Shown one piece after another: positions 3,901 to 42,272 of a stretch of 64,000 bases of DNA (positions within the stretch are counted from its first letter, which is position 1; every line of letters begins with the position of its first letter). This DNA is from Gemmatimonadales bacterium UBA2988. GTDB lineage: Bacteria > Gemmatimonadota > Gemmatimonadetes > Longimicrobiales > Gaopeijiaceae. Position numbers and translations under genes: made by a program. The notes under the pieces are model-generated. The model ran no database searches. It saw only the letters and a program-made list of their open reading frames with translations, and was not told the DNA's origin. The stretch covers positions 6,589 to 70,588 of the forward strand of contig DEAG01000011.1 of assembly GCA_002346665.1 (NCBI GenBank), given 5' to 3'.

Positions 3901-5339
3901 GGTCTCTCACTCTCCTTCAGAGCAGGTTCCCCACCCACTCCCATTCGCCGTGCGGCAAGAACTCCCGCGAACAGCCAGAACGCTGAGTTCTCGACACTAA
4001 AAAGGTTGAATGCGCTGAAAAACGACAGGCAGAGGGTGGCAGGAATGTACGCTGCGCAGGCTAGGCCAAGGCCGCGGACGAACCTGTCTTGCCTGGAATG
4101 ATAAATACCCCAGGCCATACCCATGAGCGCCACCAGAAGCCAGCCATAAGCCACAAGCCCAAGCACTCCTTGATCTGTCAAAAGCTCGATAAAGTAGTTG
4201 TGGACATCATACGACCCCAAGAGTATTGCGCCCATCGGGCCGAATTCTCCGCTGTGCTGCGTGAAGATTCCACCTCCACCTCCGAACGGCACGACCCAGG
4301 TGTATTCTTGGATGAAATTCCAAGCGGCACCCCAGATGGCGACCCGGCCTGAGGTGTACTCGCTGATAACCGACCAATCAGAAGAAGCCACAGTCCCTAA
4401 CGTGAATACGCGGTCCCAGACGGTGGCGGGTAGCCAGAAGGGTGTGAGGATTAACCCCACTACCCCCACCCAAATAAGCTTGCGGTACTCGGTCAACGCC
4501 AATACAACGAGAGCTACAGCAGCAGCCAGGTAAGCGGCCCGGGTGAAGGAGTACAGGAGCGTTGCTATCGACGCCACCGATCCGGCTAGGATAAGCCCAC
4601 GAAGCCACTTTCTGGACGTATAGGTGAACGCGAACACCGCAAACGGAATAGCCAGGGCTACGACGCGGCCGTGACCGGCCAGCATGCCAAGCCTTGTCGT
4701 AATGGTGCGCGCTCCCATGTCCAGGGACACGCCACCGACTAAAGCACTGCCGAACACTAAGCTGCCGATACCGACCGTCGCGAGCAGGCTGTACAGTCCC
4801 CACCTAACCTCGCGATCGCGCATGGGGAGGTTCGTACCTACGAAGAAAAAGATCAGTGGCAGGAGCGGAATGGCAAAGTAGCCGAGAATGAAGGACCCCA
4901 GATCTCCCATGGGAGGGGAGCCAGGCCGCAGTCGAGCACGCACAATCGCGATCATCGCCAACAATAGGACGGCTATCATGGGCCCAAAAATGCGTCGGTC
5001 CCCGACCAGTGGCCTGTGCTCCTTCAGGGATCGCACGGCCGTTCCCACGAGGGCTCCGAATAGCAGAAGGATAAGGGGATCAAGGCCCGGGATGCCCAGC
5101 ATCCTGCCTGGAAGGAGACCGTGAAAGGGAGCGATGGCAACCAAGACCGGGAACGCCAGCGCCGGCAGCAACGGCATGGCAAAAGCTACAAAAACCGCGA
5201 CCAGGCCACTCAGGGCCATCACCACCGACCGCTCTGCGACAAGAGGAGGGACGACCATTCCCGCAATCAGGGCAGCGAGAAAGACCGCGGGCATGGTTCC
5301 CGAGGTCAATACGGGACGGTTAAGCGCCAGACGATTCAT
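3897..5339 (-). CDS. O-antigen ligase / Wzy-like polymerase family membrane protein
   Basis: About 11 hydrophobic helices and the family loop motif YDVHNYFIELLTDQGVLGLVAYGWLL. Start uncertain: ATG 5339 overlaps the upstream gene by 20 nt, and the alternative is MPAVFL at 5294. Confidence 0.7.
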   Translation of the reverse strand: MNRLALNRPVLTSGTMPAVFLAALIAGMVVPPLVAERSVVMALSGLVAVFVAFAMPLLPALAFPVLVAIAPFHGLLPGRMLGIPGLDPLILLLFGALVGTAVRSLKEHRPLVGDRRIFGPMIAVLLLAMIAIVRARLRPGSPPMGDLGSFILGYFAIPLLPLIFFFVGTNLPMRDREVRWGLYSLLATVGIGSLVFGSALVGGVSLDMGARTITTRLGMLAGHGRVVALAIPFAVFAFTYTSRKWLRGLILAGSVASIATLLYSFTRAAYLAAAVALVVLALTEYRKLIWVGVVGLILTPFWLPATVWDRVFTLGTVASSDWSVISEYTSGRVAIWGAAWNFIQEYTWVVPFGGGGGIFTQHSGEFGPMGAILLGSYDVHNYFIELLTDQGVLGLVAYGWLLVALMGMAWGIYHSRQDRFVRGLGLACAAYIPATLCLSFFSAFNLFSVENSAFWLFAGVLAARRMGVGGEPALKESERP

Positions 5340-7149
5340 CTCTAAGACGCTCCGTCGGGATCCCCGCAGGCGGCGTGATCCGATACACCTTCACTTCGGC
5401 CGACCGCGTCGGCCCATTTGGGACGGGGAATGTGGTAATTAGCTCCCAGCGCTCCTCGATCGCACTGTAGAATTGGTGGGAGCTTGGGAAGGCCTCCCGG
5501 CCTGTCGGAGTGAAGAACCGCGAATACCAGTGGCTGGACGTCACAAAATATTGATAACCTTCTCGCTCGAAGAACTCCGGATAGAGGGGAGTCACCATTG
5601 TGTTCCTGGACGCCATGGCGGCTGCAGATGTCGATTCGGCCTCCGAGGACTTCCAGGTCGGCTGATGAACCATGAGGAGATCATAGGTCTGTGTTCGGGA
5701 CCGCTCGGCTACTTCTATCATCAGACGACGGTAGGTCGAACGAGCATCTGCGATATACTCTTTCCCCAACATAGTCTTCTCGTGTTCACTCCTGGCCGAC
5801 TCTTCCCAGCGCGCCCTGAGGCTAGCTACCGTCGGCTTCAACTGAGGTCCGTAGTTGTCTACCGCGATGCGGGTACCTGGTGGGATATGATCCTCAATCC
5901 ACCTCTTAGCTACGTTCCGATTGTCCGGAGCGATGAAGGCGAGATTCGTCCACACAACGCTGGCCGCTGCCGGAGCGAGCACGATCAGCGCCACAAATGC
6001 TACTGTCGCGGTCTCCCCGATCCGCACGGGGATTCGCCGGATCCAGGTGGCCAAACTGTCTATCCCCACACCGACCAACAGGGCCAAGACCGGAGTGACA
6101 GGGAGGATATACCAGAACTTGGCCGCCGAACGCGACATCACGACAAAGTAGACGATCACCGCACCAAGCGTTACCCACCGTGCCCAGGTCGGTCGGAAGG
6201 CACAAGAAAGCAGGCCGACAAGGGCTGCCCCTGCCAACGTGGGACCGAACACCGCAGGATCAACTAGGTACCCACCGAACCGGAGCGCCCCAATCCCAAT
6301 AGTGCCTTCTGCAGAGATCTGTGTGGAATTGAACACGGTGTACATCAGATCACGAATGACGGCGTCCAATTCGAACAATAGATAGGGAAACCCGATCAGC
6401 AGGCCAGCAGCGAAGGCTCCCAGGGCCGCAGCCCCCGCTCCGGTCGCCCTCAACTTCCACGGCGGCAGCCGTTCCCTGACCAACCAGGCCACCCAGGCCA
6501 GAATCACGGCCCCCGCCCACAGGATCGCAGGAAACTTGGTTGCGGTCCCCAGCCCAACCCAGAGGCCGGCAAGAGCAAGGTGCCGGATCCTCCCCGAATC
6601 CAGAAAGCTGACCACGCTGATGAATACCAGAACGACAAAGAAGACCGCGGGTACGTCCGGCCGGGTATAGTGGGAGTACTCGGCGTGCAAGGGCAGGAAC
6701 GCTAGAGCCAGGCCGGACAGAAATCCCACCCTCCGAGAAAATAGCCGCTCGCCTAGGCGGTACGTCAGGACAACCGTAGCAGCTCCGACCAGAGCCTCGA
6801 GCCCGCGACCGGTCAGGTACACGGCACTGGGATCCGTCAAGTAGCTGACGGCGAACTCCGAGGCCCCCTGATAGACCCCCAGAAAAACTCCCAGAAGGTA
6901 AAGAACTCCGAAACCACCAAATAGCACGAAAGAGAATAGCGGCTGGTACTGGAAGGTCAGAGGAATGGGGTTCCCTGTACCCAGGGCCAGAGCGTTGTTC
7001 ACAAGGACGTGCTCAGCCGGTCCGTAGAGTGCTGGTAACCCGAATCCAATCCCCCAGAGGCGAAGGGCCAGGGCCACTCCTCCGAGCCCTACCATGATCC
7101 AGCGTCCATCACGCCGTACGGACGCAGACCGACTAATACCCATGTTCAT
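5320..7149 (-). CDS. GT-C fold membrane glycosyltransferase (PMT_2 / ArnT-like, GT39/GT83 type) with C-terminal soluble domain
   Basis: N-terminal LRLWGIGFGLP, many TM helices over about 400 aa, then a roughly 200-aa hydrophilic C-terminal domain. Start trimmed to ATG 7149 (ATGA overlap with the upstream stop). Confidence 0.65.
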   Translation of the reverse strand: MNMGISRSASVRRDGRWIMVGLGGVALALRLWGIGFGLPALYGPAEHVLVNNALALGTGNPIPLTFQYQPLFSFVLFGGFGVLYLLGVFLGVYQGASEFAVSYLTDPSAVYLTGRGLEALVGAATVVLTYRLGERLFSRRVGFLSGLALAFLPLHAEYSHYTRPDVPAVFFVVLVFISVVSFLDSGRIRHLALAGLWVGLGTATKFPAILWAGAVILAWVAWLVRERLPPWKLRATGAGAAALGAFAAGLLIGFPYLLFELDAVIRDLMYTVFNSTQISAEGTIGIGALRFGGYLVDPAVFGPTLAGAALVGLLSCAFRPTWARWVTLGAVIVYFVVMSRSAAKFWYILPVTPVLALLVGVGIDSLATWIRRIPVRIGETATVAFVALIVLAPAAASVVWTNLAFIAPDNRNVAKRWIEDHIPPGTRIAVDNYGPQLKPTVASLRARWEESARSEHEKTMLGKEYIADARSTYRRLMIEVAERSRTQTYDLLMVHQPTWKSSEAESTSAAAMASRNTMVTPLYPEFFEREGYQYFVTSSHWYSRFFTPTGREAFPSSHQFYSAIEERWELITTFPVPNGPTRSAEVKVYRITPPAGIPTERLRDESSGA

Positions 7150-8852
7150 GTGTACACCCTTCCCCGCAGCAGGCGCCAACAGTCGCGGAAGAAAAGCGAG
7201 GGATGTGCCCGGTAGACGTCGCGCCGGTCCTGAAACCGATACCAGAGGCGACGGACGCGTCGCCCGAGCGTTGCCCTGCGCAACTCCATATTAATGTCTA
7301 TGTAGAAACGTGGGTGACACATGGCCAGCAGGTGCAGCAAGATGCGGTTCCCAATCCGCCCGGACCCGAATGCCGCATCGTAGGCCACGATCAGGACCCG
7401 GCTACTCCAGGGCGCCTTCAACACTCTCAACCACAGACGGAAATCCAACCTCTCGTTACCCGTCAAGCTCACCCTAGTGAACTCGATCCCCATGCGATCC
7501 AACCCCTCCCGAAGGCCCCACTCGATCAGCTCCGCTTCCCTGCCACTGTTATTTATGAAAGCGACCGCCTCCTCGACACGGGTGAGACCGTCACTTCCCA
7601 GCGCCTTGGGTAGCTCTTCACCGCATCTCTGTGCTAGGTACTGGCGCTGATACTCTATCGCAGATTCCTCACTTTCCCGAAACATCCTGCGGTATCTATC
7701 AAGCGCATCGCGGGTCCCCTCAACATCACCGCCCTGGATCAGGTTCACGGTCTCTTCAGGGTCATTCAAAAGATCGTAGAATTCTTCACGGTCCGAGTCC
7801 TCAAGGCCATGGTACAAGACATACTTGAAACGTCGCCCCCTGAGACCGGACACTCGATGATCCTGGGCCAGATAGCGGGCGTCGATCCGAACGACGTGCT
7901 CATCATTTGCATGATCCCCGCTAACGATCGACTCCTCCTGCAATCCGTCCCCAAGAAGATGGGCCACAGAGCGCCCCTGAACCCGCGGTGCACCGTCCTC
8001 CACCAGGCGGCGACGTTGACCGGACAGCCCGAGAAGGTCAAGCAGTGTAGGCGCCACGTCGAGCGTGCTAGCCATCTCGTCGACCTTTTTCGGCCGACAA
8101 CCCGGATACCACAACAAAAAGGGCACGATCACGTTGTCATCGGTCAGGATGAGATCATGTCTATTGTAGAACGGCCCTCGCCGCTTGATTAACTCGTTGA
8201 AAGACTTCCTACTGGGATCCGGGAAGCCGTGGTCGGAGCACATGACCACCACGCTCCGTTCGTACAATCCTCGCTCTTCGATCACGCTCAAAAGGCGCGC
8301 CACCCGATCTGAGACGGATGGATCCCTCCGGCCATTAATGTGAATGAAGGTGAAGACAGGGTCGGGAAGTGACGAACGAAGCACGGCCGTCGCTGCTGTC
8401 TCAACCGTGGCGCCATCCCAATGTTCCCAACTTCTCGCCCCCGAAGGAAGAAACCGAGCTGGGACCGGCTTGAGAATCTCGCGGAAATAGCGTCGAGCTT
8501 CACGGTAAAAGCTCACGCCGAAACGCTCGTACCCCTCTTCGGCCAGCAGAGACCCGAGATTTCGGAACTCTCCCTGGTCATACCGAAACGTCTCAAAGCT
8601 TCGACTCAATAGGTACGACGGTACCGAAGTAAACATGGAGCTCAGCGACATCACCGTGCTCGGCGCGACCGTAACCATGGTGGTGAATTCCACCGCCCGC
8701 TCCGCAAAGCGATCCATGACGTCTAGACGCCCTAGTCCCAACTCGTCATCTGGGCAATGATAGCTGCGCACCCCATCCACCAGTATCCAGATGAGGTTCC
8801 ATGCGCTCGCTCCTGCCTGCACTCCTTTCTCTTGTTGCTTGTCTTGTTTCAA
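7146..8852 (-). CDS. sulfatase-fold (alkaline phosphatase superfamily) enzyme with unrecognised C-terminal domain
   Basis: NLIWILVDGVRSYH (metal-binding Asp region) and VVMCSDHGFPD. The formylglycine position reads VAPSTVMSLSSMF instead of C/S-x-P-x-R. No signal peptide or TM helix. TTG start at 8852 (alternative GTG at 8822). Confidence 0.65.
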   Translation of the reverse strand: MKQDKQQEKGVQAGASAWNLIWILVDGVRSYHCPDDELGLGRLDVMDRFAERAVEFTTMVTVAPSTVMSLSSMFTSVPSYLLSRSFETFRYDQGEFRNLGSLLAEEGYERFGVSFYREARRYFREILKPVPARFLPSGARSWEHWDGATVETAATAVLRSSLPDPVFTFIHINGRRDPSVSDRVARLLSVIEERGLYERSVVVMCSDHGFPDPSRKSFNELIKRRGPFYNRHDLILTDDNVIVPFLLWYPGCRPKKVDEMASTLDVAPTLLDLLGLSGQRRRLVEDGAPRVQGRSVAHLLGDGLQEESIVSGDHANDEHVVRIDARYLAQDHRVSGLRGRRFKYVLYHGLEDSDREEFYDLLNDPEETVNLIQGGDVEGTRDALDRYRRMFRESEESAIEYQRQYLAQRCGEELPKALGSDGLTRVEEAVAFINNSGREAELIEWGLREGLDRMGIEFTRVSLTGNERLDFRLWLRVLKAPWSSRVLIVAYDAAFGSGRIGNRILLHLLAMCHPRFYIDINMELRRATLGRRVRRLWYRFQDRRDVYRAHPSLFFRDCWRLLRGRVYT

Positions 8853-11162: not shown

Positions 11163-12047
11163 CTAGGGTCGGCGTACGGCAACATCATCGGCAGCCCTCC
11201 GGTTGACCAGATCTGCGAGGAGCCCGATCGCCAGTACGTGAATGCCTCCCATAATCAACAACACGGAGAGTTCGGCCACGTTCTGGTTCTGCACAATATC
11301 GAACGCCAGTTTGGCAGCCCCGACCACGAACAGGACTATGCTGATCGGGAAAAACACCTTCAGCGGGTTCACATATATGACCATACGAACGATCTGGAAG
11401 AGAAGGCGCTTGGTGTCGAGAATCGGGTGAATCTTTGATTTTCCGAACCTCTTGTGATAATCGATCGGCACATACTCTACGCCTGCTCCCGACTGCATCA
11501 TGGCTAGAGTAATGGTCGTGCTGAAGGAGAACCCCGAGGGGAGCAATCTAAACAACCGCAGAGCGTCCTCTCTATGAAAAACCCGTAGTCCCGAGTTCAG
11601 ATCCGGGATCTTCGCATCCGCCAGGTAATTGGCCAACCGGAGCAGCAATAGCTTGGGAAGTCTACGGAGAAACGGGATGTTGACGTTAGCGCCTATCCTG
11701 GCTCCGACCACCATGGCGACGCCGTCAAGCTTGGCGAGAAGAGTCGGGATTACGTCACACGGATAGGTCCCATCCGCGTCGATCGTGACGATCACGTTTG
11801 AACGCGCGATACGAATCCCAGTCTTCAGAGCCTCGCCGTAGCCGCGACGGAAGGAATGCTGGTAGAGCGTGACCCCAGACTCCCTGGCTATCTCCGCCGT
11901 TCGGTCTGTCGAGGAATCGTCGACGACCACGATCTCGAAGCGGTGGGGAGTGTCGGCCATGGCAGCCTTAACATCTGCCAGAACCTGGCCGATACCAGCT
12001 TCCTCATTGTGGGCGGGAACGACGATGGTGACGTCCTTTTGCATCAC
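11163..12047 (-). CDS. GT2 polyprenyl-phosphate glycosyltransferase (GtrB/ArnC-like)
   Basis: VTIVVPAHNEEAGIGQVL, IVVVDDSSTDRTAEIA and TIDADGTYP, plus two C-terminal TM helices (FFPISIVLFVVGAAKLAF, VLLIMGGIHVLAIGLLADLV). Confidence 0.85.
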   Translation of the reverse strand: MMQKDVTIVVPAHNEEAGIGQVLADVKAAMADTPHRFEIVVVDDSSTDRTAEIARESGVTLYQHSFRRGYGEALKTGIRIARSNVIVTIDADGTYPCDVIPTLLAKLDGVAMVVGARIGANVNIPFLRRLPKLLLLRLANYLADAKIPDLNSGLRVFHREDALRLFRLLPSGFSFSTTITLAMMQSGAGVEYVPIDYHKRFGKSKIHPILDTKRLLFQIVRMVIYVNPLKVFFPISIVLFVVGAAKLAFDIVQNQNVAELSVLLIMGGIHVLAIGLLADLVNRRAADDVAVRRP

Positions 12048-12072: not shown

Positions 12073-13287
12073 TCAGTCGCTAATCACTTCGTGCAGGACC
12101 TCCAACAAATAGTCTATATCCTGGGGGGCCAGATACTGGTGGCAACCAACATAGAACCCATTGCCGTTTACCCAATCTGCTACCGGATAGTCGTCCACGT
12201 CGATCTGAAACAGGCGTTGATAAACCGGCTGGTTCAAGAGCGGCAGCATGTCCCGAGTCTCTACGCCACGCTTCTCAAGTCCATTCACTACTCTGGACTT
12301 CTCCTCATCACGAAGGACAATGGGGTACATCATGAATGCGTGATCACACCCCGGTCGTATCCGCGGAAGCTGGATGCGATCCTCCAAGTCACGGAGGCCG
12401 TCCGTGATCCGAGCGGCGTTGGCTGCCCTCTGCTGAATCGCGACCTCAATCTTCTCCAGCTGTGCCAGCCCAAGCGCCGCTTCGAGTTCGGTCGCCCGAT
12501 AGCTGTAGCCTACGGAATTGAACCTGAAGCGCCGGGCAACAATATCCTGAAGCTCTTGGTCCGACACGTCATCGTCATCGTCAATTGAGAGGTAGCTGGG
12601 GTCCCGACCATGATTGAGTAGCGAGCGAATCTTGACCATGTAGTCGTAGTTCGAGGTCGTATTCAGCCCCCCCACACCAGTAACCAGCAAATGTGCTATA
12701 TAGGTCGAAAAACAACCTATGTCACCCATGCTGCCCACCGGCTCACCACGGTAGCGGGCAAACATCGTCTCACAGGAATCCTCTATGACCTTGAGGTCAT
12801 ATCTAGCAGCAACATCGCGGATCGGATCCATCTCACAGGGCAAGCCGAAGAGATGCACAGGTATTATCGCACGTGTCCGGGTGGTGATCTTACCTTCGAG
12901 CAGAGCTGGATCCAACTCGTAATACTCTCGCTCGACGTCTACGAAGACCGGCTTCATCTGGTTATGGATAACTATGTTGGACGTAGCAACGAACGTGACT
13001 GCCGGCACCACGACCTCATCGCCGTCCGACCAACCGTGGATCTCCTTGAGAGCGTGGAGGGCAAGCTGCAGTGCGCTCGTTCCACTGTTGCTCATGACCC
13101 CGTGCGCCGCCCCTTGCATCTCAGCGAAGCGTTGCTCGAACTCGCGCATGAACGGTCCATAAGACAATCGGCCAGTGTCCAGAACCCGGCCGACGTATTC
13201 CCTCTCTGCCTCGCCGATCTCGATACCACCAACGCAGATTTTAGGCTGGCCCTCGGATACGACGCTCTCTTCCTGCCTATCCCCCAA
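12073..13287 (-). CDS. DegT/DnrJ/EryC1/StrS-family PLP-dependent sugar aminotransferase
   Basis: GAAHGVMSNSGTSALQLAL, VVVPAVTFVATSN and the typical fold-type I layout, 404 aa. Confidence 0.85.
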   Translation of the reverse strand: MGDRQEESVVSEGQPKICVGGIEIGEAEREYVGRVLDTGRLSYGPFMREFEQRFAEMQGAAHGVMSNSGTSALQLALHALKEIHGWSDGDEVVVPAVTFVATSNIVIHNQMKPVFVDVEREYYELDPALLEGKITTRTRAIIPVHLFGLPCEMDPIRDVAARYDLKVIEDSCETMFARYRGEPVGSMGDIGCFSTYIAHLLVTGVGGLNTTSNYDYMVKIRSLLNHGRDPSYLSIDDDDDVSDQELQDIVARRFRFNSVGYSYRATELEAALGLAQLEKIEVAIQQRAANAARITDGLRDLEDRIQLPRIRPGCDHAFMMYPIVLRDEEKSRVVNGLEKRGVETRDMLPLLNQPVYQRLFQIDVDDYPVADWVNGNGFYVGCHQYLAPQDIDYLLEVLHEVISD

Positions 13288-13382
13288 TCCAAACTCCTTT
13301 CCAAATATGCTCGCAGGGACTACCGCTCACTCCTACAAAGGTCATCCGGACTACTCCCGACCATGCAGTCATCGTGTCCTAA

Positions 13383-14798
13383 CTACACTGCCAGCGCCGG
13401 CTTCACCGCTTCAGCTTGGAATAGCCTTCGATACATAGCTGACTGAAACAGAAGATCGGGGTCATAGCGTTGCTTGAGTGCCTCGAATTCTCTCCAACGA
13501 GGGAACATCTGCTGGAAATGGTCGACGGTCAACATTTCGTCTTTCGCCAAATATGATCGGCCGCCAGCTTCAAGCACCAGTTCGGTCATTCTGTAGAACA
13601 ATTCTGCCTCCTCGGCCTTCCCGCCGGCGTTCAGGGGAAGATCAATCCCGATCGAACAACCGTCGACCGAATAGCTCAGCATAGACTCGTCCGCCCGGTG
13701 GCTCTTAATCGCTGTCAGATGCGACGGCCGTCCGTTCTGCTGCGTCAGCTCGATGAGCTTTCGCATCGTCCGAGCGCATGAATCAAAAGGGATGACAGGC
13801 TCGAGCTCGAGATAGCCGCGCGGCGTAAAGAGGACTCGCCAATTCGGTATCATATCCAGAAGAAAGGTGAACTCGAAGTAATTCTGGACATAGGGACTGC
13901 GTCTCGTGCTGACTTTGTCGGTATGGAATTTCACAGTATTGACCGCGCTCATGAGCGTGTTCCCGAAGAACGGCTTGAGCATCGGCCACACCCAAGTACG
14001 GGGGAAAACCCCGAGAATGTAAGGGGAGATGTATCCTAGGATCTCACTTTTGGCACTCCGCGACGGCCTCTCAATGAAGCGACTCGTATGAATAGTACCC
14101 CGACCGAGATCAGCCCCCCGAGAGAAGCAATCCACCCACCCAATGTGGAAATCCGTCGTTGACCGAACTGCCTCGAAATCCTCCAGCATGCTCTCCAGGT
14201 TGGGCACGGTCCACTTGCTTACTTCCAGGTATGGGGACGGGATCCGCTTGCACTGCAGAACGATCTCGAGGAATATGCCTAGCAAACCCAGACCGCCAAT
14301 GGCGGCGAAAAATAGCTCCTGGTTCTCAGTCCGACTGCATTGGTATACCCGCCCATTACCAGCCAGCAGTTTGAACGCCACGACAGAGTCGCCGAGATTC
14401 CCCTCGTTCCACGCATTCTTGCCGTGGACGTTGTTTGCCACTGCACCGCCCAACGTTGGGTGTCGGATTCCGGGAACGGACGAGACCACCCAGTTGTCCT
14501 GCAGACAAACCTGTAGTGCCTGCTCGAATGTCACCCCCGGCTCTACTGTCATTTGACCGGTAGCCGGATCCCAGGCAAGGATCCGATTCATGTGGGTGAG
14601 GTCGATGACGACCCCGTCGGGGTTCAGGATGACGTCTCCGTAGCTGTATCCGGCCCCGCGCAAAGTCACGGAAAGGCTACGTCGACGCGCTTCCTCCAGA
14701 ACCAGGTCTATTTCCGCCCGACTCGATACCCTCGCCACATATGACAAGGCATGGGACGTCAATGTCCACCCTGAGGTCCGCTCGTAGCTAAGCACCAA
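13383..14798 (-). CDS. FAD-linked oxidase, DprE1-like (polyprenyl-phospho-sugar 2'-oxidase family)
   Basis: LRGAGYSYGD, GGAVANNVHGKN, LFFAAIGGLGLLGI and a C-terminal GGRSYLAKDEMLT...DPDLLFQSAMYRRL all parallel DprE1 blocks. Start trimmed to TTG 14798 or GTG 14795, just inside the upstream stop (14788). Confidence 0.7.
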   Translation of the reverse strand: MVLSYERTSGWTLTSHALSYVARVSSRAEIDLVLEEARRRSLSVTLRGAGYSYGDVILNPDGVVIDLTHMNRILAWDPATGQMTVEPGVTFEQALQVCLQDNWVVSSVPGIRHPTLGGAVANNVHGKNAWNEGNLGDSVVAFKLLAGNGRVYQCSRTENQELFFAAIGGLGLLGIFLEIVLQCKRIPSPYLEVSKWTVPNLESMLEDFEAVRSTTDFHIGWVDCFSRGADLGRGTIHTSRFIERPSRSAKSEILGYISPYILGVFPRTWVWPMLKPFFGNTLMSAVNTVKFHTDKVSTRRSPYVQNYFEFTFLLDMIPNWRVLFTPRGYLELEPVIPFDSCARTMRKLIELTQQNGRPSHLTAIKSHRADESMLSYSVDGCSIGIDLPLNAGGKAEEAELFYRMTELVLEAGGRSYLAKDEMLTVDHFQQMFPRWREFEALKQRYDPDLLFQSAMYRRLFQAEAVKPALAV

Positions 14799-15681
14799 CC
14801 ATCCTGAGGAAGTTTCGGCCCAAGATGCCCTCCCGTTCTCTATCGGTAATCTTGAGCCGCTCGATCCATCCCTTAATAACACCGTAGTCATAGACGCCGG
14901 TAGCACTCGAGAAGCCATAGGGACTATCGGTGCCGTAGAAACATTTCTCGGGACCTACTGCCGCAACAGCGATCCGCACAAAGCGCTCGCTAAGATGCGG
15001 ACTCGAGAGATCGATGTAGGCGTTCGCATGATCACGGACGAGAGGCCACATCTCCTTGAAAAAGGGCATGCCCGCGTGAGCAAAAATGATGCGCAGCCGT
15101 GGGTAGGTCTCTGCGAGCCACTGATACGCCCCCTGCGCCCCGAACCCCAAGTGAATCAGCAATGGCAATCCCAACTCCTCGGCACGCTGCGCAATCCCCG
15201 ACAACTCTCTCATAGGGTAATGATGCCAATAGGGATGCACCTTAACACCGATCATGCCCGGCACCGCCCTCCAGCGTTCCAAGTCCTCGATCACGTTGGG
15301 GTTGTCTCTCGGAGTCAGGAATATCCAGCCCCAGAACCGCTCCGGCATCTTCTCCAAGGCCGCGGCCACACTCTCGTTGTCCGGTTCAGTGGACTTGATG
15401 TACCCTTGTCGCCCTTGGGTGAACGGGCGCCACAAGGGACGGAGCGCGCCGTACTCATCGTAGAACGTTGTGCTCACGGCAGCGGCCGCCGGCCGAAGCA
15501 GCGAAGAGTTCATCATTGTGCGCTGCACAGCCAGAAGCACCGCAGATTTCTCCGGCTCCACCGTCTCTGTGATCCTGGGAATGAGCACGACCCTGTCGAT
15601 GCCTTCCTCGTCCATTTTACCGGACAGCATCTCCAGGCTGAGAACTCGCTCGTCAAGATGGGCGTGACAGTCAACTACCAT
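14788..15681 (-). CDS. amidohydrolase-superfamily metal-dependent hydrolase (TIM barrel)
   Basis: N-terminal VVDCHAHL, then FAHAGMP and YGTDSPY, a metal-ligand pattern typical of amidohydrolase_2-like proteins. Confidence 0.7.
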   Translation of the reverse strand: MVVDCHAHLDERVLSLEMLSGKMDEEGIDRVVLIPRITETVEPEKSAVLLAVQRTMMNSSLLRPAAAAVSTTFYDEYGALRPLWRPFTQGRQGYIKSTEPDNESVAAALEKMPERFWGWIFLTPRDNPNVIEDLERWRAVPGMIGVKVHPYWHHYPMRELSGIAQRAEELGLPLLIHLGFGAQGAYQWLAETYPRLRIIFAHAGMPFFKEMWPLVRDHANAYIDLSSPHLSERFVRIAVAAVGPEKCFYGTDSPYGFSSATGVYDYGVIKGWIERLKITDREREGILGRNFLRMVGA

Positions 15682-15724: not shown

Positions 15725-16474
15725 TTACTCGTCTTTGTCCGTAAATGCCCCAGCCACAATCCGTGAAAAAATAGCATCGGGCAGGATCCGCATGGCCTCG
15801 AGTATAAGTCGGAGCAGGCGTGGCATGGTGACGCTAAGCGCACGCCGGTCGACGGCGGCAAGAATGCGGTACACCGCCTGTTCACTCGTCAGTCTGAACC
15901 AGCTCGATGACCCTGAACCCATCCCCGTATCCACTGCCCCGAGATGAATGGTAGTGAACGTGATGCCATCTCGGCTGTATCTCCCTCTGAGAGCCTCAAA
16001 AGCTCGAGTGAGAGCTGCTTTGCTGGCACAATATGCAATCCACCGCGCGTCACCTCGAAACGCCGCGAGGGAAGAGATTGCAACGAAGTGCCCCGCTCCT
16101 CGCTCCCGAAAGTTGGACATGAATATGTCCACCCACCTCATGGCTCCGAAGAGGTTTACCCGGACCACCTCCTCAAATCCGTCGCTTGTGAACGGACTGC
16201 CAAGGCGCTCCGGGTTGATTCCGGCGTTCAGAATAACCACGTCGGGGCGGAATCCGGACTCCTCCATCCTCGCCGCAGTGGAGCGCACCTGCTCATCTTG
16301 CTCCACGTCGCAAACGGAAAAGGAGAAACAGTCCTTGCCAAGGGTCTTCTGCAACTCTAGCAGATGGTCTTCTCGGCGAGCGATACCCCACACTCGGTGC
16401 CCGCGCCGAACGAGCTCCCGCACCATTCCGCGCCCAATTCCCGAAGAGACCCCCGTAACGAAATAGCTTGGCAC
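15725..16474 (-). CDS. short-chain dehydrogenase/reductase, DprE2-like
   Basis: VTGVSSGIGRG (TGxxxGxG), YCASKAAL (YxxxK) and the tail MRILPDAIFSRI resembling the DprE2 C-terminus. Start trimmed to GTG 16474, preceded by GGAGAAAGGAAATC. Confidence 0.7.
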   Translation of the reverse strand: MPSYFVTGVSSGIGRGMVRELVRRGHRVWGIARREDHLLELQKTLGKDCFSFSVCDVEQDEQVRSTAARMEESGFRPDVVILNAGINPERLGSPFTSDGFEEVVRVNLFGAMRWVDIFMSNFRERGAGHFVAISSLAAFRGDARWIAYCASKAALTRAFEALRGRYSRDGITFTTIHLGAVDTGMGSGSSSWFRLTSEQAVYRILAAVDRRALSVTMPRLLRLILEAMRILPDAIFSRIVAGAFTDKDE

Positions 16475-16544
16475 GATTTCCTTTCTCCGGATCAACCCTA
16501 CTGATCTAGCCCCATTATAGTTAGCCAAGTAGTTCTCAAGAACA

Positions 16545-17300
16545 TTACCTCGCAGACGTATCGGGCGAAGCCAACACCCTGACCGCCATGCGCTGCACAC
16601 GCCGCAGGAATATATGGAACAGTGTGTTGGCTACTGAGAGAAGGTTTGGGATCGTAAAGGCCTTCGAGGCCCCGCGTTCCCGATCACTGTTAGCTACTTG
16701 CACTTCCACCACGGAAATGCCTTCGTCCAAAAGTCGGCACAGCAACTCTGCCTGATAGCCAAATCCTGCGGTCTCCGCAAACCACATCCGAACGTTGTCA
16801 GTCTTGTGCAAAACCGGCCCGTTGTAGTACCGGATATCATGACCACTCAACAGGTTCACTAGGAACGTAAACGTTAGGCTGAGAATTCTGCGTGGAATGG
16901 TCCTGGTCTCGCTGAGGCCGAAGTACGGTACGACAGCGTCGGCCTCACCGACGTGGGAAAGGATCGAAGCAATGGCCTCGGAGGGCTCAGCTGCGTCGCC
17001 GTTGACGAGCATGAAGTTCTCGCAGGATGCGCGCTGTGCAGCGATGAAGTAGTTCCTACCCAGACCTCGGCAAAAACGATTCCTGATCAAGTTTAGCCGC
17101 ACGTCTGGATAGCGCTCGATACGCCCAAGAACCTCCCGCACAGTACCGTCACTCGATGCATCGTCAACAACGATGATTTCGTACGGAAAGCGCAAGTCGC
17201 GCATTACCTGGACGATGTTGTCAACCGTAAGACCCACATTACGCTCCTCGTTTAAACAAGGAACGAAGAGGGTGACGGATTCTTCTTCCACTTCTCGCAT
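16545..17300 (-). CDS. GT2 glycosyltransferase, polyprenyl-phosphate sugar synthase-like, no C-terminal TM
   Basis: VTLFVPCLNEERNVGLTV, IIVVDDASSDGTV and VNGDAAEP. Start trimmed to ATG 17300 (MREVEEES), 8 nt after the upstream stop. Confidence 0.8.
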   Translation of the reverse strand: MREVEEESVTLFVPCLNEERNVGLTVDNIVQVMRDLRFPYEIIVVDDASSDGTVREVLGRIERYPDVRLNLIRNRFCRGLGRNYFIAAQRASCENFMLVNGDAAEPSEAIASILSHVGEADAVVPYFGLSETRTIPRRILSLTFTFLVNLLSGHDIRYYNGPVLHKTDNVRMWFAETAGFGYQAELLCRLLDEGISVVEVQVANSDRERGASKAFTIPNLLSVANTLFHIFLRRVQRMAVRVLASPDTSAR

Positions 17301-17307
17301 AGCCACC

Positions 17308-17802
17308 TTAACCAGCCAGGCCGTCGCCCATCGTACGGCCCAGGAACCTCGCCCAACGAGCCATACGTACACCTTTAACCGTCAGATCGACACGGTCCTT
17401 TGAGACTAGCAAGAGTCCACTTTCACCCATGAGCCGAAGGCGATCCTCGAAGCGCGAAGATGAGGTGTATTCATCTAAAAGCGTTCCGAAAACAACGGTG
17501 TGTCCAGGCTCGACAAGTAGTCTCGCTACAAGAGTCAAGGATACCGACCGGGCAACACCCGCATAGACGAATAGATAGAGCACCACCAGTAAGAAATCGA
17601 TCGACACCACCGCAAAGATCTCGGGAAGGAGGCCGCCCACCAGTAGCACTGTGAACAGTGAAATCACCACACCCATCGCTGCCATACCACTCAGAAGTCC
17701 GATTCGCGGAGATCCTGAGGGTAAAATCCGCCAGACCGCGACATGGGTGATGAAGAAGATCCCCATTCCGGTAGTCACCGACAAAGCGATATCGACGCTC
17801 AT
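17308..17802 (-). CDS. small membrane protein: 3 predicted TM helices plus a C-terminal winged-helix-like domain (paralog A)
   Basis: Hydrophobic helices at about residues 5-25, 34-56 and 59-82, then RSVSLTLVARLL...GLLLVSKDRVDLTVKG. AGGAA 5 nt upstream of the ATG. Confidence 0.6.
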   Translation of the reverse strand: MSVDIALSVTTGMGIFFITHVAVWRILPSGSPRIGLLSGMAAMGVVISLFTVLLVGGLLPEIFAVVSIDFLLVVLYLFVYAGVARSVSLTLVARLLVEPGHTVVFGTLLDEYTSSSRFEDRLRLMGESGLLLVSKDRVDLTVKGVRMARWARFLGRTMGDGLAG

Positions 17803-17809
17803 GAGGTTC

Positions 17810-18370
17810 CTACCCGACCACCTCTAGACGGAGGAGCCTTCGCATCCCGTAACCTACGTGGGCCACGAGCCTGCCAACCGAGGTGAGTGGCCCGATTTGA
17901 TCAGCAGTGCACCGTATCAGACCAATTCGCTCCAGTCCCTCTATACGCTTGGAAAGTAGCCCCCTAACACCCATGCCTTCGCCATAGCCAGACTTCAGGT
18001 CCTCAAAACCAGCTCCGCCATCTAGCTCGAGAAGATCGACGAGGATTCTCAGCGAATACCCTCGTGAGAGCAACGATCGAACTTCCACGTACACCAGCCA
18101 ACCGGCTGCGTACAAAGCGACAACACCAGTCCTCAAACTGACCAATTCATCCCCCGGCCAGCCCATCTGAGCTGTGGCTTCCCAAAGGACACCGACACCG
18201 ATGACGCCGAACACGAGGAGAGACGCAGCGGCCGGGCCGGGACCATTGACACGTAAGGTACGATTCATCAGCACCTGCCATCCCCGCTGTAATGCTATGA
18301 CCCCGATCAAGGTCGCTAGAACAACGAACGGGGTCACCACCATACGCGCCAACTCTGTGAGCTGAATCAC
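17810..18370 (-). CDS. small membrane protein: 3 predicted TM helices plus a C-terminal winged-helix-like domain (paralog B)
   Basis: Same architecture as 17308..17802: RGYSLRILVDLLEL...IEGLERIGLIRCTADQIGPLTSVG. GTGA overlap with the upstream ADH stop. Confidence 0.6.
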   Translation of the reverse strand: MIQLTELARMVVTPFVVLATLIGVIALQRGWQVLMNRTLRVNGPGPAAASLLVFGVIGVGVLWEATAQMGWPGDELVSLRTGVVALYAAGWLVYVEVRSLLSRGYSLRILVDLLELDGGAGFEDLKSGYGEGMGVRGLLSKRIEGLERIGLIRCTADQIGPLTSVGRLVAHVGYGMRRLLRLEVVG

Positions 18371-19434
18371 GGGGAATCATCGGTCATGCATATCAGCCCA
18401 CGCCCTACCCCTCCCGACTCGAGATTCTCAAGGCCGCGGTTGACGTCGTCGAGGGAGTACTCGTGGGTGACAAGCTGTTCCGCCCTGAGCTTCCCGGCGA
18501 GGCACAGTTCCGCATATCGCGGAATGTCCCGGTCCGGAACGGTCTCCCCTCCCCACGTCCCCACAATTCTCTTCCCTCTGATCAGCTCCATGGGGTCAAG
18601 AGACAGCATTTCTCCGAAGGGCAGATTACCCGCGATCACGCACAGTCCGCCGTTCTCTCGAACACAGCGGAAAGCCAATGCCATGCTCGACTGCTTGCCC
18701 GCTGCCTCGATCGAGTAATCTACCCCGCGACCATGTGTGACTTCGAGGATGCTCGCCAACGGGTCCTGGGCCCGGGCGTTCACCACGTGGGTAGCACCGG
18801 CCCGGCGTGCCAGTTCGAGCTTATGATCCAGCACGTCAACCGCGATCACTTGGGATGCATCCGAGAGGGCAGCGGCGAGGACAGCACTCAGCCCGATTCC
18901 TCCCACTCCAAAGATGGCTACGCTATTTCCTTCTGCGACTTGGGCGGTGTTGAAAACAACGCCAGCGCCTGTGGGAAACGCACAGCCCAGGAGGGCCCCT
19001 TCACGCAATGGGACATCGTCCGGAATCCGCGTGACCCGATTCTCGCAGGTGACGGTTTGGAGCATGAAGGTGCTCATAGCCCCCGAGTTTATGGACCCCT
19101 CATCACTCCCGTAAACGGTGGATGGCACGTCAGCGCCGTTACCCTTGATCCACGACAGCACCACGCGATCCCCCGGTTTGACTTTCCCGACACCTGGACC
19201 GGTCTCTAGAACCGTTCCCGAGCCTTCGTGTCCGAGAGTATGTGGGAGGAACCGGTCCTCGCCTCGCTTGCCACGGGCCTCGAGTAGTTGCGTATGGCAG
19301 ATTCCACTGTATGCGATGTCGACAATAAGCTGGCCCGGCTTTAGCGGGGGAGTCGAGAGCTGAATAACGCGTAACGGCTCACCCAGTTCGAAAAGGACAG
19401 CGGCTTGTGTTTCCACAGTTAACGGCGGCTCCAT
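18367..19434 (-). CDS. zinc-type medium-chain alcohol dehydrogenase
   Basis: GICHTQL, GHEGSGTV and GVGGIGLSAV (NAD fold). Start trimmed to ATG 19434 (MEPPLTVETQAAVL). Confidence 0.8.
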   Translation of the reverse strand: MEPPLTVETQAAVLFELGEPLRVIQLSTPPLKPGQLIVDIAYSGICHTQLLEARGKRGEDRFLPHTLGHEGSGTVLETGPGVGKVKPGDRVVLSWIKGNGADVPSTVYGSDEGSINSGAMSTFMLQTVTCENRVTRIPDDVPLREGALLGCAFPTGAGVVFNTAQVAEGNSVAIFGVGGIGLSAVLAAALSDASQVIAVDVLDHKLELARRAGATHVVNARAQDPLASILEVTHGRGVDYSIEAAGKQSSMALAFRCVRENGGLCVIAGNLPFGEMLSLDPMELIRGKRIVGTWGGETVPDRDIPRYAELCLAGKLRAEQLVTHEYSLDDVNRGLENLESGGVGRGLICMTDDSP

Positions 19435-19949
19435 ACGGAGTGATAGGTGAGAAGTCCGAGTATAGATAAGCTGTCGACCATCTCTTCTCCGTTGATCATG
19501 TCCAAACAGCGAGAGAGAGGAACCCACTCATGACGTTCCACTTCTTTAGGTTGTGGTTCCCGGTCAGTCGTAGAGAAGTCGTGCGTCAGGAATATACGAG
19601 TCGGGTTATGCAAGGTATCGAGTCCTGGATGGAAAGTGATCAGCGGTGTCAGGTTCTTGCACCGCACCCCAGTCTCTTCCAAGCACTCTCGCACTGCACT
19701 CACCTCAGGTGTCTCTCCCCGATCTACCCTACCGCCCGGTATCTCCCAGGAAGGACCGTCAATCAGGAGGCGATACTGTTGGACTAGAAGGATGGATTCA
19801 CCTCGTACCACGATCAGGCCAGTACGCCAACCGTAATCGGTTACGTAGTACTCCTTCGAGAAGGCGCCAAAATCAGCATGTACGCGATATACCTGCTGAT
19901 AGCTGTTCTCGTATACGACTTCCCGGGGACCGATCCGAGGCACATCCAT
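19419..19949 (-). CDS. NUDIX hydrolase
   Basis: Nudix box GGRVDRGETPEVSAVRECLEETG. Confidence 0.85.
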   Translation of the reverse strand: MDVPRIGPREVVYENSYQQVYRVHADFGAFSKEYYVTDYGWRTGLIVVRGESILLVQQYRLLIDGPSWEIPGGRVDRGETPEVSAVRECLEETGVRCKNLTPLITFHPGLDTLHNPTRIFLTHDFSTTDREPQPKEVERHEWVPLSRCLDMINGEEMVDSLSILGLLTYHSVWSRR

Positions 19950-25884: not shown

Positions 25885-25902
25885 CGGACTCCGTTTTCCG
25901 AG

Positions 25903-38958: not shown

Positions 38959-42261
<3,303 letters not shown>

Positions 42262-42272
42262 TCTCGGTTCTA

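Follow-up and report, generated by a model that had tools for sequence, protein, structure and literature searches.

Periplasmic or luminal glycosylation of LPS, teichoic acids, arabinan and proteins draws on monosaccharide donors bound to a carrier lipid, for example Und-P-Glc, Und-P-Ara4N, decaprenyl-P-arabinose and Dol-P-Man. It is poorly understood how the synthases that lack transmembrane (TM) helices are organized at the membrane and how their products are tailored and handed over to flippases; even the roles of GtrA and of the TM domain of DPMS are unsettled. Human DPM1 is devoid of TM helices and requires two small membrane proteins, DPM2 and DPM3, which measure 80-90 aa, have two TM helices and contain no winged-helix domain (PMC5526996). 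In mycobacteria and corynebacteria, the TM-less polyprenyl-P-mannose synthase Ppm1 has a membrane protein partner, Ppm2, which is separately encoded or fused and has been proposed to anchor and activate the enzyme; Ms-Ppm1 binds Ppm2 (PMC3460810). Two further systems place small membrane proteins beside a polyprenyl-P GT2. GtrA, or GtrA_DPMS_TM (PF04138, a family that includes the TM domain of the type-III enzyme PfDPMS), is a four-TM component of about 120 aa that lacks a soluble domain and is genetically coupled to the GT2 in three-component glycosylation. ArnE/ArnF, the EamA/SMR-like undecaprenyl-P-Ara4N flippase, is a heterodimer of paralogous four-TM proteins of the DMT/SMR type that lies beside an ArnC-like synthase. 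Here we describe a family of paired membrane proteins, A and B, from a 64,000 nt stretch of DNA of Gemmatimonadales bacterium UBA2988 (the window), as a concrete candidate for the missing organizing component of lipid-sugar pathways.

Gene organization around the A/B pair

Gene B (17810..18370; 186 aa) and its paralogue of the same architecture, gene A (17308..17802; 164 aa), were defined by ORF calls, homologues and AF2 models, together with the dN/dS analysis given below. Both lie on the minus strand, as do the other genes of this section, in a tightly packed operon. The stop codon of the upstream Zn-dependent alcohol-dehydrogenase-family gene (ADH; 18367..19527) overlaps the start codon of B as GTGA. 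Spacers of 7 nt separate B from A and A from the start of a TM-less GT2 (16545..17300; 251 aa, Pfam GT2), a putative polyprenyl-phosphate glycosyltransferase. The GT2 starts with the ATG at 17300, preceded by a Shine-Dalgarno-like GGTGG motif between A and this start, and its ORF runs on to 17372. It is followed by a short-chain dehydrogenase (SDR; 15725..16600) for which a DprE2-like role is proposed, an Amidohydrolase_2 gene (14788..15681) and a DprE1-like FAD_binding_4/ALO oxidase (13383..14918). The flanks agree with the preliminary description, which had placed the two frames between an alcohol dehydrogenase and a soluble GT2 ahead of DprE-like genes. A PMT_2-type GT-C glycosyltransferase encoded at 5320..7179 is likely the periplasmic user of the lipid-linked sugar, and GT-C or YfhO-like genes recur in the related loci. 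The ADH gene is also directly upstream of B in loci L003/L004 and L006 and four genes upstream in L007, and the amidohydrolase gene after the SDR is kept in L003 too.

A and B are genuine genes with a shared membrane architecture

The preliminary description had left room for the two frames being spurious. We found homologues of A (n = 10) and B (n = 29) in a database clustered at 90% identity, and comparison with a 90%-identical Gemmatimonadota MAG gave dN/dS of 0.23 for A and 0.25 for B. A and B are genuine genes under purifying selection. Translation of A may actually begin 8-12 codons after the ATG at 17802; the codon matching this ATG is ATT in locus L008.

AF2 models of B (pLDDT 87) and A (pLDDT 81) both show a run of three long helices leading into an alpha-beta-alpha-alpha-hairpin-alpha domain, and the hydropathy profiles agree with the models on the TM helices, in line with the earlier view that the two proteins share a layout of three hydrophobic helices and about 80 soluble residues. 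In B, the N-terminus and TM1-TM3 occupy residues 1-97 (18080..18370; AF2 helices 4-38, 44-67 and 73-103) and the winged-helix (wH) domain, delimited by AF2, Foldseek and conservation, residues 98-186 (17813..18079), with helix a1 at 105-115, a short strand at 120-121, a2 at 122-129, a3 at 135-148, the hairpin at 152-162 and a C-terminal helix at 164-180. The wH domain of A spans residues 84-164 (17311..17553) and is continuous with TM3 (AF2 helix 59-97); in the models of both proteins it starts right at the end of TM3 with no linker. In B, loop 1 carries a net charge of +2.6 and loop 2 of -0.8, a positive-inside signal by which B is predicted to have its N-terminus outside and its C-terminus inside, with three TM helices and a cytoplasmic wH domain, so that the wH domains would be on the same side of the membrane as the GT2. 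The wH domains themselves are net positive (+5.6 in B, +3.6 in A).

The constraint in both proteins is on the cytoplasmic wH domain, and the TM helices are nearly free of conserved positions. In an alignment of 138 B sequences, 11 of the 89 wH positions are at least 90% conserved versus 0 of the 97 positions in the N-terminus and TM helices; the corresponding figures for A are 6 of 81 and 1 of 83. Invariant residues of the B domain are R103, G104, S106, R108, D112, Y129, G132, G134, R142 and G166, and conserved residues of the A domain are S86, S88, Y112, R121, T141, G144 and G164.

Pairwise BLASTP detected no similarity between A and B (E 1.9). By contrast, hhalign of the two family alignments matched A 76-164 with B 93-185 over 88 columns at 97.4% probability (E 1.1e-11), and the HMM of each family matches the other family. 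By these profile comparisons the C-terminal halves of A and B are homologous and the pair are paralogues, so the claim in the preliminary description that the soluble parts align is borne out by profiles, though not by BLASTP.

The modeled fold of these halves is a winged helix. Nearly all top Foldseek matches in the PDB are wHTH proteins (OhrR/MarR, HlyU, YodB/QsrR and AF1382, the last with TM 0.72 and rmsd 2.3 Å over 85 columns); their E-values are only 0.07-0.3 because the queries were whole models that include the TM region. Other matches are the wH domain of MUS81 and dimerization domains of O-methyltransferases. A and B have in common with the MarR, PadR, ArsR and HxlR regulators the alpha1-beta-alpha2-alpha3-hairpin topology and the L-T-x-x-G turn after the wing, but those are soluble DNA-binding dimers, whereas A and B are integral membrane proteins with the wH domain welded to TM3. 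A Pfam/NCBIfam scan of A and B gave no match at E<=1, and scanning all members of both alignments gave only sub-threshold matches to HemN_C, HTH_45 and HVO_A0261_N (25-28 bits against a cut-off of 35). When profiles of A, B and the joint wH domain were run against the PDB, nothing significant emerged, the best matches being HxlR, IdeR and Lrs14-like proteins at E 0.16-0.4. Thus, of the earlier assignment to MarR/PadR-type winged helices, the similarity of fold stands and membership of such a family by sequence does not; the preliminary description had recognized no named family, and neither protein is matched by one of Pfam or NCBIfam.

The neighboring GT2 is a predicted polyprenyl-P glycosyltransferase without a TM domain

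The best PDB matches of the GT2 profile are PfDPMS (1.4e-19), GtrB (1.9e-17) and ArnC (9.5e-17). Its invariant residues R137 and S141 align with R131 and S135 in interface helix 1 of PfDPMS, which are ligands of the lipid phosphate (PMC5526996), and the alignment stops where the TM domain of PfDPMS starts. Types I and III DPMS, GtrB and ArnC have C-terminal TM helices, whereas the GT2 of the window has none: its hydropathy profile contains no hydrophobic segment, with a 19-residue maximum of 1.39 compared with 2.37 in the GtrB-like GT2 at 11163-12047. As judged from sequence, the GT2 is a polyprenyl-P-GT-type enzyme (DPMS/GtrB/ArnC-like) lacking a TM domain. Members of its subfamily are fused, locus by locus, to an FAD oxidase, SDR, epimerase or ABC exporter; the DprE1-like FAD module is fused to the GT2 in L003, L031 and L032, and a GT2-ABC exporter fusion directly follows A in L006, L044 and L049-L052. 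Given this variety of fusions, it is plausible that several enzymes assemble at the membrane around the lipid-linked sugar.

The pair is conserved across phyla and co-occurs with the GT2

In all 24 distinct loci anchored on B, a B-type gene is followed directly by an A-type gene on the same strand, with intergenic gaps of 7-8 nt or with the genes overlapping. These loci come from at least eight phyla (Gemmatimonadota, Omnitrophota, Nitrospira, Methylomirabilota, Rokubacteria, Hydrogenedentes, Chloroflexota and Proteobacteria). A and B very probably form an obligate pair.

The GT2 subfamily is set apart from other GT2s by score (>=215 versus <=100 bits). In 18 of the 24 distinct B-anchored loci, a member lay no more than two genes away from the pair. 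In the reverse search, counting only loci with at least 1150 nt on both sides of the GT2 (n = 28), the pair was present in 21, in 19 of these within 300 nt. The co-occurrence with GT2 genes that the preliminary description had envisaged is therefore found from both sides, pair and GT2 being adjacent in about 70-75% of loci in either search direction, and the GT2 is by far the commonest immediate neighbor. Where the GT2 is at least 55% identical to that of the window, the pair accompanied it in 8 of 8 well-flanked loci, with complete A and B ORFs; in L045, whose GT2 is 60% identical, one A/B-family ORF is visible at the contig end. These counts support a functional tie between the pair and the polyprenyl-P-type GT2 next door.

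About a quarter of the B-anchored loci have no such GT2 within 6 kb (L005, L015 and L024-L026), and about a quarter of the well-flanked GT2 loci lack the pair. The latter rule out a universal need of the subfamily for the pair, and TM-less GT2s of this kind can thus exist without it. A search for a docking element revealed no difference between the C-terminal tails of GT2s from pair-associated and pair-less loci.

Comparison with known membrane partners

Like DPM2/DPM3, A and B are two small membrane proteins encoded apart from a TM-less GT2 with interface helices that belongs to the same enzyme class. They differ in size (164 and 186 aa), in having three TM helices with a wH domain of 80-90 aa, and in being paralogous to each other. 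Given the published architecture of DPM2/DPM3, we treat the resemblance as analogy only, with no homology indicated. The Ppm1-Ppm2 system provides a bacterial case of a TM-less synthase with an integral membrane protein partner, which the putative contact of A/B with the GT2 would parallel, but Ppm2, a large apolipoprotein N-acyltransferase (Lnt) with many TM helices, is unrelated to A/B in fold and size. The pair is likewise distinct from GtrA: neither protein matches the Pfam family, and hhalign against three GtrA proteins of related loci gave a probability of 0.1-0.3%. GtrA is encoded alongside the pair in L020, and beside the same GT2 subfamily in the pair-less loci L103 and L091. With ArnE/ArnF the pair shares a potentially heteromeric organization of small paralogous proteins next to a polyprenyl-P sugar synthase; A and B have no conserved TM residues, no Pfam match to EamA and a probability of 0.2% in hhalign against two EamA-like neighbors.

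Possible function of the A/B pair

We propose that A and B together serve a polyprenyl-phosphate sugar synthase as a heterodimeric membrane adaptor, similar to DPM2/DPM3 in its working and not homologous to them; we consider this reading to have about an even chance of being correct. A and B would be the two subunits of a non-catalytic inner-membrane heterodimer, each with three membrane spans that lead from an outside N-terminus to an inside C-terminus. Because helix 1 of the wH domain directly continues TM3, the domain would lie flat on the cytoplasmic face, presenting an invariant Arg/Ser at the membrane interface, the invariant Arg of helix 3 and, in B, a Tyr-Gly-x-Gly-x-Gly loop. Within a surface-glycan pathway, the pair would act in the branch producing a lipid-linked monosaccharide, with the TM-less DPMS/GtrB/ArnC-like GT2 encoded 7 nt downstream as its partner. 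With a nucleotide sugar as donor, this enzyme would glycosylate polyprenyl phosphate, while the wH domains dock it and keep the GT2, the phosphate head group of the carrier lipid, or both, at the membrane. From its context, the donor sugar may be a modified heptose or a keto/amino sugar. The DprE1-like oxidase, SDR, amidohydrolase and aminotransferase, adjacent or fused, would then tailor the lipid-linked sugar, which would be passed to a separate flippase and a GT-C transferase. Heterodimer formation, physical contact with the GT2 and an anchoring or lipid-presenting role are what we infer in this scheme. Several observations count against it. Some loci show only the pair or only the GT2, the GT2 tails do not differ with the presence of the pair, and no A/B-GT2 fusion turned up among the 150 best B-family representatives. 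PfDPMS stripped of its TM domain still reaches the membrane and retains activity (PMC5526996), and the pair is kept in the clade of GT2-ABC fusions, where the GT2 is already tethered to the membrane, so that simple anchoring cannot be the entire function.

The retention of the pair beside a GT2 that the ABC fusion already holds at the membrane would suit a membrane scaffold for a partner other than the GT2, such as the periplasmic GT-C or the flanking nucleotide-heptose/keto-sugar enzymes (ADH, transaldolase, methyltransferase), serving as a metabolon or in post-translational control of flux. The loci without a GT2 in view (L005, L024 and L026), where the pair lies between a transaldolase/HldE-like gene and a methyltransferase plus a PMT_2-type GT-C, point the same way, as does the Zn-ADH immediately upstream in the window, L003 and L006. 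The GT2 is nevertheless the most frequent immediate neighbor in both search directions and the remaining neighbors differ from locus to locus, which leaves this scaffold unlikely, though not negligibly so. Alternatively, A and B might be a new flippase or scramblase for the polyprenyl-P-sugar of the GT2, filling the slot of GtrA, ArnE/ArnF or Rv3789, with the wH domains docking the synthase. The cluster of the window contains a GT2 and a GT-C with no GtrA, EamA-like or ABC gene nearby and only a distant Wzx, the pair recalls ArnE/ArnF, and in pair-less loci a GtrA_DPMS_TM protein (L103, L091) or an EamA-like protein (L107) stands beside the GT2, a hint of slot replacement. On the other side, conservation is concentrated in the cytoplasmic domain and almost absent from the TM helices, profile comparisons indicate no homology to GtrA or EamA-like proteins, and loci with the pair often carry a flippase candidate of their own: the GT2-ABC fusion after A in the six loci named above, ABC exporters in L012, L016 and L015, GtrA in L020 and an EamA-like protein directly after the GT2 in L030. 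We therefore regard this transport role as quite improbable. The ArnE/ArnF-style flippase offered in the preliminary description is weakened accordingly, while its broader notion of an accessory to the polyprenyl-P sugar comes close to the partner of the synthase favored here.

Membrane-bound wHTH regulators such as ToxR and CadC are known, and A and B had also been suggested to be a membrane-tethered pair of regulators; as a heterodimer, they would sense lipid-linked intermediates or the state of the envelope, bind DNA and control the glycan cluster. Their fold resembles that of the MarR, ArsR and HxlR regulators, their wH domains are net positive, and one Arg in helix 3, the equivalent of the recognition helix, is invariant in both families. 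This suggestion found no positive evidence, since neither protein significantly matches any DNA-binding family by sequence, no linker separates the wH domain from TM3, the wing of B has no conserved basic residue in the family alignment, and acidic residues occur in the RFEDR-like helix 3 of A. Moreover, strict pairing, fixed order and tight packing with an enzyme across many phyla look like the behavior of complex subunits, and wH domains commonly mediate protein-protein contacts, as the fold matches to MUS81 and the O-methyltransferase dimerization domains illustrate. Regulation of transcription thus appears very unlikely, and A and B are more likely membrane partners of the lipid-sugar enzyme than gene regulators.

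The adaptor reading can be extended. The pair might define an unrecognized, widespread bacterial type of multi-subunit polyprenyl-phosphate sugar synthase, in which a pseudo-symmetric heterodimer of membrane-embedded wH proteins, whose fold ordinarily serves to bind DNA, acts as a receptor or gate for the carrier lipid. Its invariant interfacial Arg/Ser/Tyr residues would bind either the phosphate of the lipid or the lipid-linked sugar, and the heterodimer would link the synthesis step of the TM-less GT2 to tailoring on the lipid (DprE1/DprE2-like oxidation-reduction and perhaps transamination) and to an exporter that takes over the product. We offer this extension tentatively, as possible but rather doubtful. 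As an organizing component of these pathways, the family would also exemplify a wH domain recruited to a role at the membrane surface other than binding DNA.

The A/B family

A profile search with B retrieved at least 676 representatives at 50% identity (E<=1e-3), all metagenomic or from MAGs and none from a cultured host. Proteins of this unnamed family, which spans many phyla, are now annotated as 'hypothetical', and the family merits a definition. Among the 150 best B-family representatives, no fusion of B to the GT2 or to its paralogue A was found; beyond some ORF extensions, the only candidate in this set was P0168, a doubtful protein of FHA-TM3-wH layout.

Genomic context and conservation of the A and B genes

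The small genes B (17810-18370, minus strand; ORF of 186 aa) and A (17308-17802, minus strand; ORF of 164 aa) are contained in a long, nearly unbroken series of minus-strand genes. The stop codon of the upstream Zn-ADH gene overlaps the GTG start of B in a GTGA sequence, 7 nt separate the B stop codon from the ATG of A, and another 7 nt, which include a GGTGG motif, lie between the A stop codon and the ATG of the GT2 gene (16545-17300, minus strand). The GT2 start was set at the Met encoded at 17300, where the homologues begin, the ORF start at 17372 being an over-extension.

In a 90%-clustered protein collection, 10 homologues of A (40-92% identity) and 29 of B (identity down to 22% over the alignment) were found, all of them metagenomic 'hypothetical proteins'. 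Among 1.84 billion representatives, a profile of the B alignment matched 676 proteins at E≤1e-3, 339 of them at E≤1e-10, and nearly all of these matches are 165-190 aa in length. Against a Gemmatimonadota MAG contig (L008) encoding 90% identical proteins, dN/dS was 0.25 for B and 0.23 for A, and a marine, Gemmatimonadota-like source of the window is therefore probable. The homologues and the dN/dS values agree with the preliminary description in taking both ORFs as genuine genes. As L008 has ATT at the position of the A start codon, the true start of A may lie 8-12 codons downstream of the annotated ATG. A terminal glycine is usual in both families (window regions 17308-17310 and 17810-17812): G164 of A is 92% conserved, and B typically ends in ...VG.

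Loci from other genomes were gathered via the homologues and by a scan in which each GTDB species was represented by one genome, which gave 20 loci, all from MAGs. The hosts belong to Gemmatimonadota, Omnitrophota, Nitrospira, Methylomirabilota, Rokubacteria, Hydrogenedentes, Chloroflexota, and Alpha- and Betaproteobacteria. The B-type gene is followed by an adjacent A-type gene on the same strand in all 27 loci (24 distinct). One Nitrospira contig (L027) carries two separate B-then-A pairs, at 2880-3964 and 7705-8763, about 4 kb apart. A and B represent a real, widespread, and uncharacterised family, for which no named family was found.

Fold, paralogy, and membrane topology

AlphaFold2 with the family alignments gave confident models (pLDDT 87 and pTM 0.71 for B; pLDDT 81 for A). 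The B model consists of helices 4-38, 44-67, and 73-103, followed by a winged-helix (wH) domain composed of α1 (105-115), a short strand, α2 (122-129), α3 (135-148), a hairpin (152-155/158-162), and a C-terminal helix (164-180). The order of elements is the same in A, where TM3 and wH helix 1 form a single continuous helix (59-97). The models and the three hydrophobic segments detected by hydropathy uphold the three TM helices described for each protein.

Pairwise BLASTP found no similarity between A and B. The paralogy and shared soluble part proposed earlier were recovered by hhalign of the two family alignments (97.4% probability, E 1.1e-11, A 76-164 against B 93-185), and the family HMMs cross-match each other. 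The joint alignment of the C-terminal domains has four positions common to both families: a Ser in helix 1 (B S106/A S88), a Tyr at the end of helix 2 (B Y129/A Y112), an invariant Arg in helix 3 (B R142/A R121), and a Gly after the wing (B G166/A G144).

Foldseek searches of the PDB with both whole models retrieved almost only winged-helix proteins, including OhrR/MarR, HlyU, YodB/QsrR, MftR, the MUS81 wH domain, and AF1382 (TM 0.72, rmsd 2.3 Å over 85 columns), at E-values of only 0.07-0.3, which are weak because the TM helices were included in the query. Neither A nor B of the window matched Pfam or NCBIfam, with sub-threshold matches to HemN_C, HTH_45, and HVO_A0261_N from some family members, and profile searches of the PDB returned nothing significant (HxlR, IdeR, and Lrs14-like proteins at E 0.16-0.4). 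Assignment to MarR or PadR was therefore ruled out: the preliminary description was right about the fold, but the likeness does not extend to family membership. One B-family representative (P0168, 246 aa) has an FHA domain N-terminal to TM3 and the wH domain, which may reflect a genuine signalling fusion or an error of gene calling.

Among 138 B-type and 28 A-type sequences, net positive charge is found in loop 1 (+2.6 in B, +2.1 in A) and the wH domain (+5.6 and +3.6), with neutral or negative values for the N-terminus and loop 2. This distribution predicts an N-out/C-in topology with a cytoplasmic wH domain. Positions conserved at ≥90% number 0 of 97 in the N-terminal and TM part of B versus 11 of 89 in its wH domain (R103, G104, S106, R108, L110, D112, Y129, G132, G134, R142, and G166), and 1 of 83 versus 6 of 81 in A. 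The TM helices thus look like a generic anchor, and the function probably resides in the cytoplasmic domain, which they keep right at the membrane surface.

The neighboring GT2 is a predicted lipid-sugar synthase without a TM domain

The best PDB matches of the GT2-subfamily profile are P. furiosus Dol-P-Man synthase (PfDPMS; 1.4e-19), GtrB (1.9e-17), and ArnC (9.5e-17), all three of which are polyprenyl-phosphate glycosyltransferases. In PfDPMS, R131 and S135 of interface helix 1 hold the lipid phosphate (PMC5526996). After correction of the PfDPMS numbering for a 22-residue tag offset, these residues align with R137 and S141 of the GT2, both invariant in the subfamily, and the alignment extends through the acceptor loop. 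The GT2 has no hydrophobic segment and ends soon after an amphipathic helix, where the TM domain of PfDPMS begins. We therefore regard it as a predicted 'type-II-like' lipid-sugar synthase, comprising the catalytic domain and interface helices. A second polyprenyl-P-type GT2 in the same operon (11163-12047) carries two TM helices at its C-terminus, as is typical of GtrB, so that the cluster may make two different lipid-linked monosaccharide donors.

Defined by a subfamily HMM (≥215 bits versus ≤100 bits for other GT2s), this GT2 subfamily is the usual neighbor of the pair, in 18 of 24 distinct loci. It occurs as a stand-alone protein of ~250 aa directly after A (window, L001, L008, L010, L013, and L022), as a GT2-FAD_binding_4/ALO fusion (L003), as a GT2-ABC exporter fusion (L006), or as a GT2-SDR fusion directly before B (L012, L016, L018, L020, L023, L027, and others). 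A reverse scan of metagenomes seeded with the GT2 yielded 80 loci. Both family genes were present in 21 of the 28 GT2 loci with at least 1150 nt on each side, and within 300 nt in 19. The co-occurrence thus stood when checked from both sides. Where the GT2 is ≥55% identical to that of the window and both family ORFs are complete, the pair is directly upstream in 8/8 loci; in L045 (60% identical), one family ORF, interrupted by the contig end, lies 338 nt downstream of the GT2. With more distant GT2s, presence of the pair was mixed.

Across loci, the GT2 is fused to a FAD_binding_4/ALO (DprE1-like) oxidase, an SDR, an NAD-epimerase, or a full ABC exporter half-transporter (TMD+NBD) (for example L003 7585-9774, L012 4176-5924, L103 1766-3391, and L006 9024-11558; further L031, L032, L016, L018, L020, L023, L027, L044, and L049-L052). 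These gene fusions suggest that lipid-linked sugar synthesis, on-lipid tailoring, and export are physically coupled.

A and B as putative accessory subunits of the synthase

Such an enzyme has two established precedents: human DPM1 requires two small membrane proteins, the tether DPM3 and the enhancer DPM2 (PMC5526996), and mycobacterial Ppm1 interacts with Ppm2, a membrane protein (PMC3460810). In position, number, topology, and co-occurrence, A and B suit a role of this kind, and their most probable role is that of accessory membrane subunits of the lipid-sugar synthase. On the basis of this fit, we propose that A and B would form a pseudo-symmetric heterodimer whose cytoplasmic wH domains provide docking sites for the GT2, the carrier-lipid phosphate head group, or both. 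The pairing, fold, topology, GT2 class, and co-occurrence are results of the analysis, and the contact with the GT2 and the biochemical role are what we infer. Docking would keep synthesis together at the membrane with on-lipid tailoring by the DprE1-like oxidase, SDR, amidohydrolase, and perhaps DegT transaminase, before the product is exported and the GT-C enzyme (5320-7179) uses it. Several observations weaken this model. The pair is retained even in loci whose GT2, being fused to an ABC transporter, requires no anchoring; in some loci the pair occurs with no GT2, and in others the GT2 occurs with no pair; and PfDPMS lacking its TM domain is active by itself (PMC5526996). A role beyond tethering is thus probable.

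The loci without GT2 would also be compatible with a scaffold for another partner, either a GT-C enzyme or the cytoplasmic sugar-nucleotide enzymes, which we consider unlikely. That the pair itself flips the lipid-linked sugar made by the GT2, in the ArnE/ArnF style suggested earlier, is likewise unlikely. In its favor, no GtrA, EamA-like, or ABC gene is found near the synthase and the GT-C of the window, and a GtrA_DPMS_TM or EamA-like gene adjoins the same GT2 in a few pair-less loci. However, A and B have unconserved TM helices and no homology to GtrA or EamA-like proteins, and at least 11 pair loci have a flippase candidate of their own: an ABC fused to the GT2 (L006, L044, and L049-L052), an ABC exporter (L012, L015, and L016), GtrA (L020), or an EamA-like protein directly after the GT2 (L030). 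The other earlier idea, a pair of membrane-tethered transcription regulators, appears very improbable: the wH fold and positive charge are all that favor it, but the wH domain follows TM3 without a linker, its wing is unconserved, and the genomics are subunit-like.

In literature searches, TM-anchored winged-helix pairs were not found described for polyprenyl-phosphate sugar pathways, the nearest concepts being three-component systems (PMC11127046), DPM2/3, and GtrA. If A and B are accessory subunits of the synthase, a known kind of job would be carried out by unrelated proteins through an unusual use of the winged helix.

Other features of the loci

Near GT2s of this subfamily, whether or not the pair is present, there are small flippase-type genes, encoding an EamA-like protein (L030 983-1366; 27 bits, just below the cut-off) and GtrA_DPMS_TM proteins (L020 11295-11690 and L103 3505-3993; E 1e-12 and 8e-19). 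The clusters include heptose-type genes (HldE-like, GmhA-like, and transaldolase) and also hold split TPP-dependent E1 enzymes, DegT aminotransferases, methyltransferases, and GT-C proteins (PMT_2, YfhO-like).

In the window, a DegT aminotransferase gene directly follows that of the DprE1-like FAD oxidase (12073-14918), which speculatively suggests oxidation and transamination of a lipid-linked sugar. Since 131 nt are shared between the oxidase ORF and the amidohydrolase ORF upstream of it, the oxidase probably starts further downstream than its ORF does. SecA (38959-42549) is unusually long at 1196 aa; its match to the Pfam model SecA_DEAD, which has 290 positions, extends over residues 103-644 and so points to ~250 inserted residues. 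The capsule/EPS cluster contains a gene for an RCC1-repeat (β-propeller) protein (56205-57587), flanked by a Wzx-type flippase (54799-56208) and a Wzc-like tyrosine kinase/co-polymerase (57650-60055). Split TPP-dependent E1 α/β genes and a B12-binding radical-SAM gene are located within the sugar cluster (24826-26880 and 33573-35069). Comparable TPP-enzyme genes are of the E1 type in L003 and the transketolase type in L001 and L007, and the radical-SAM gene recurs in L001; these genes hint that the cluster produces a higher sugar that is branched or C-methylated.
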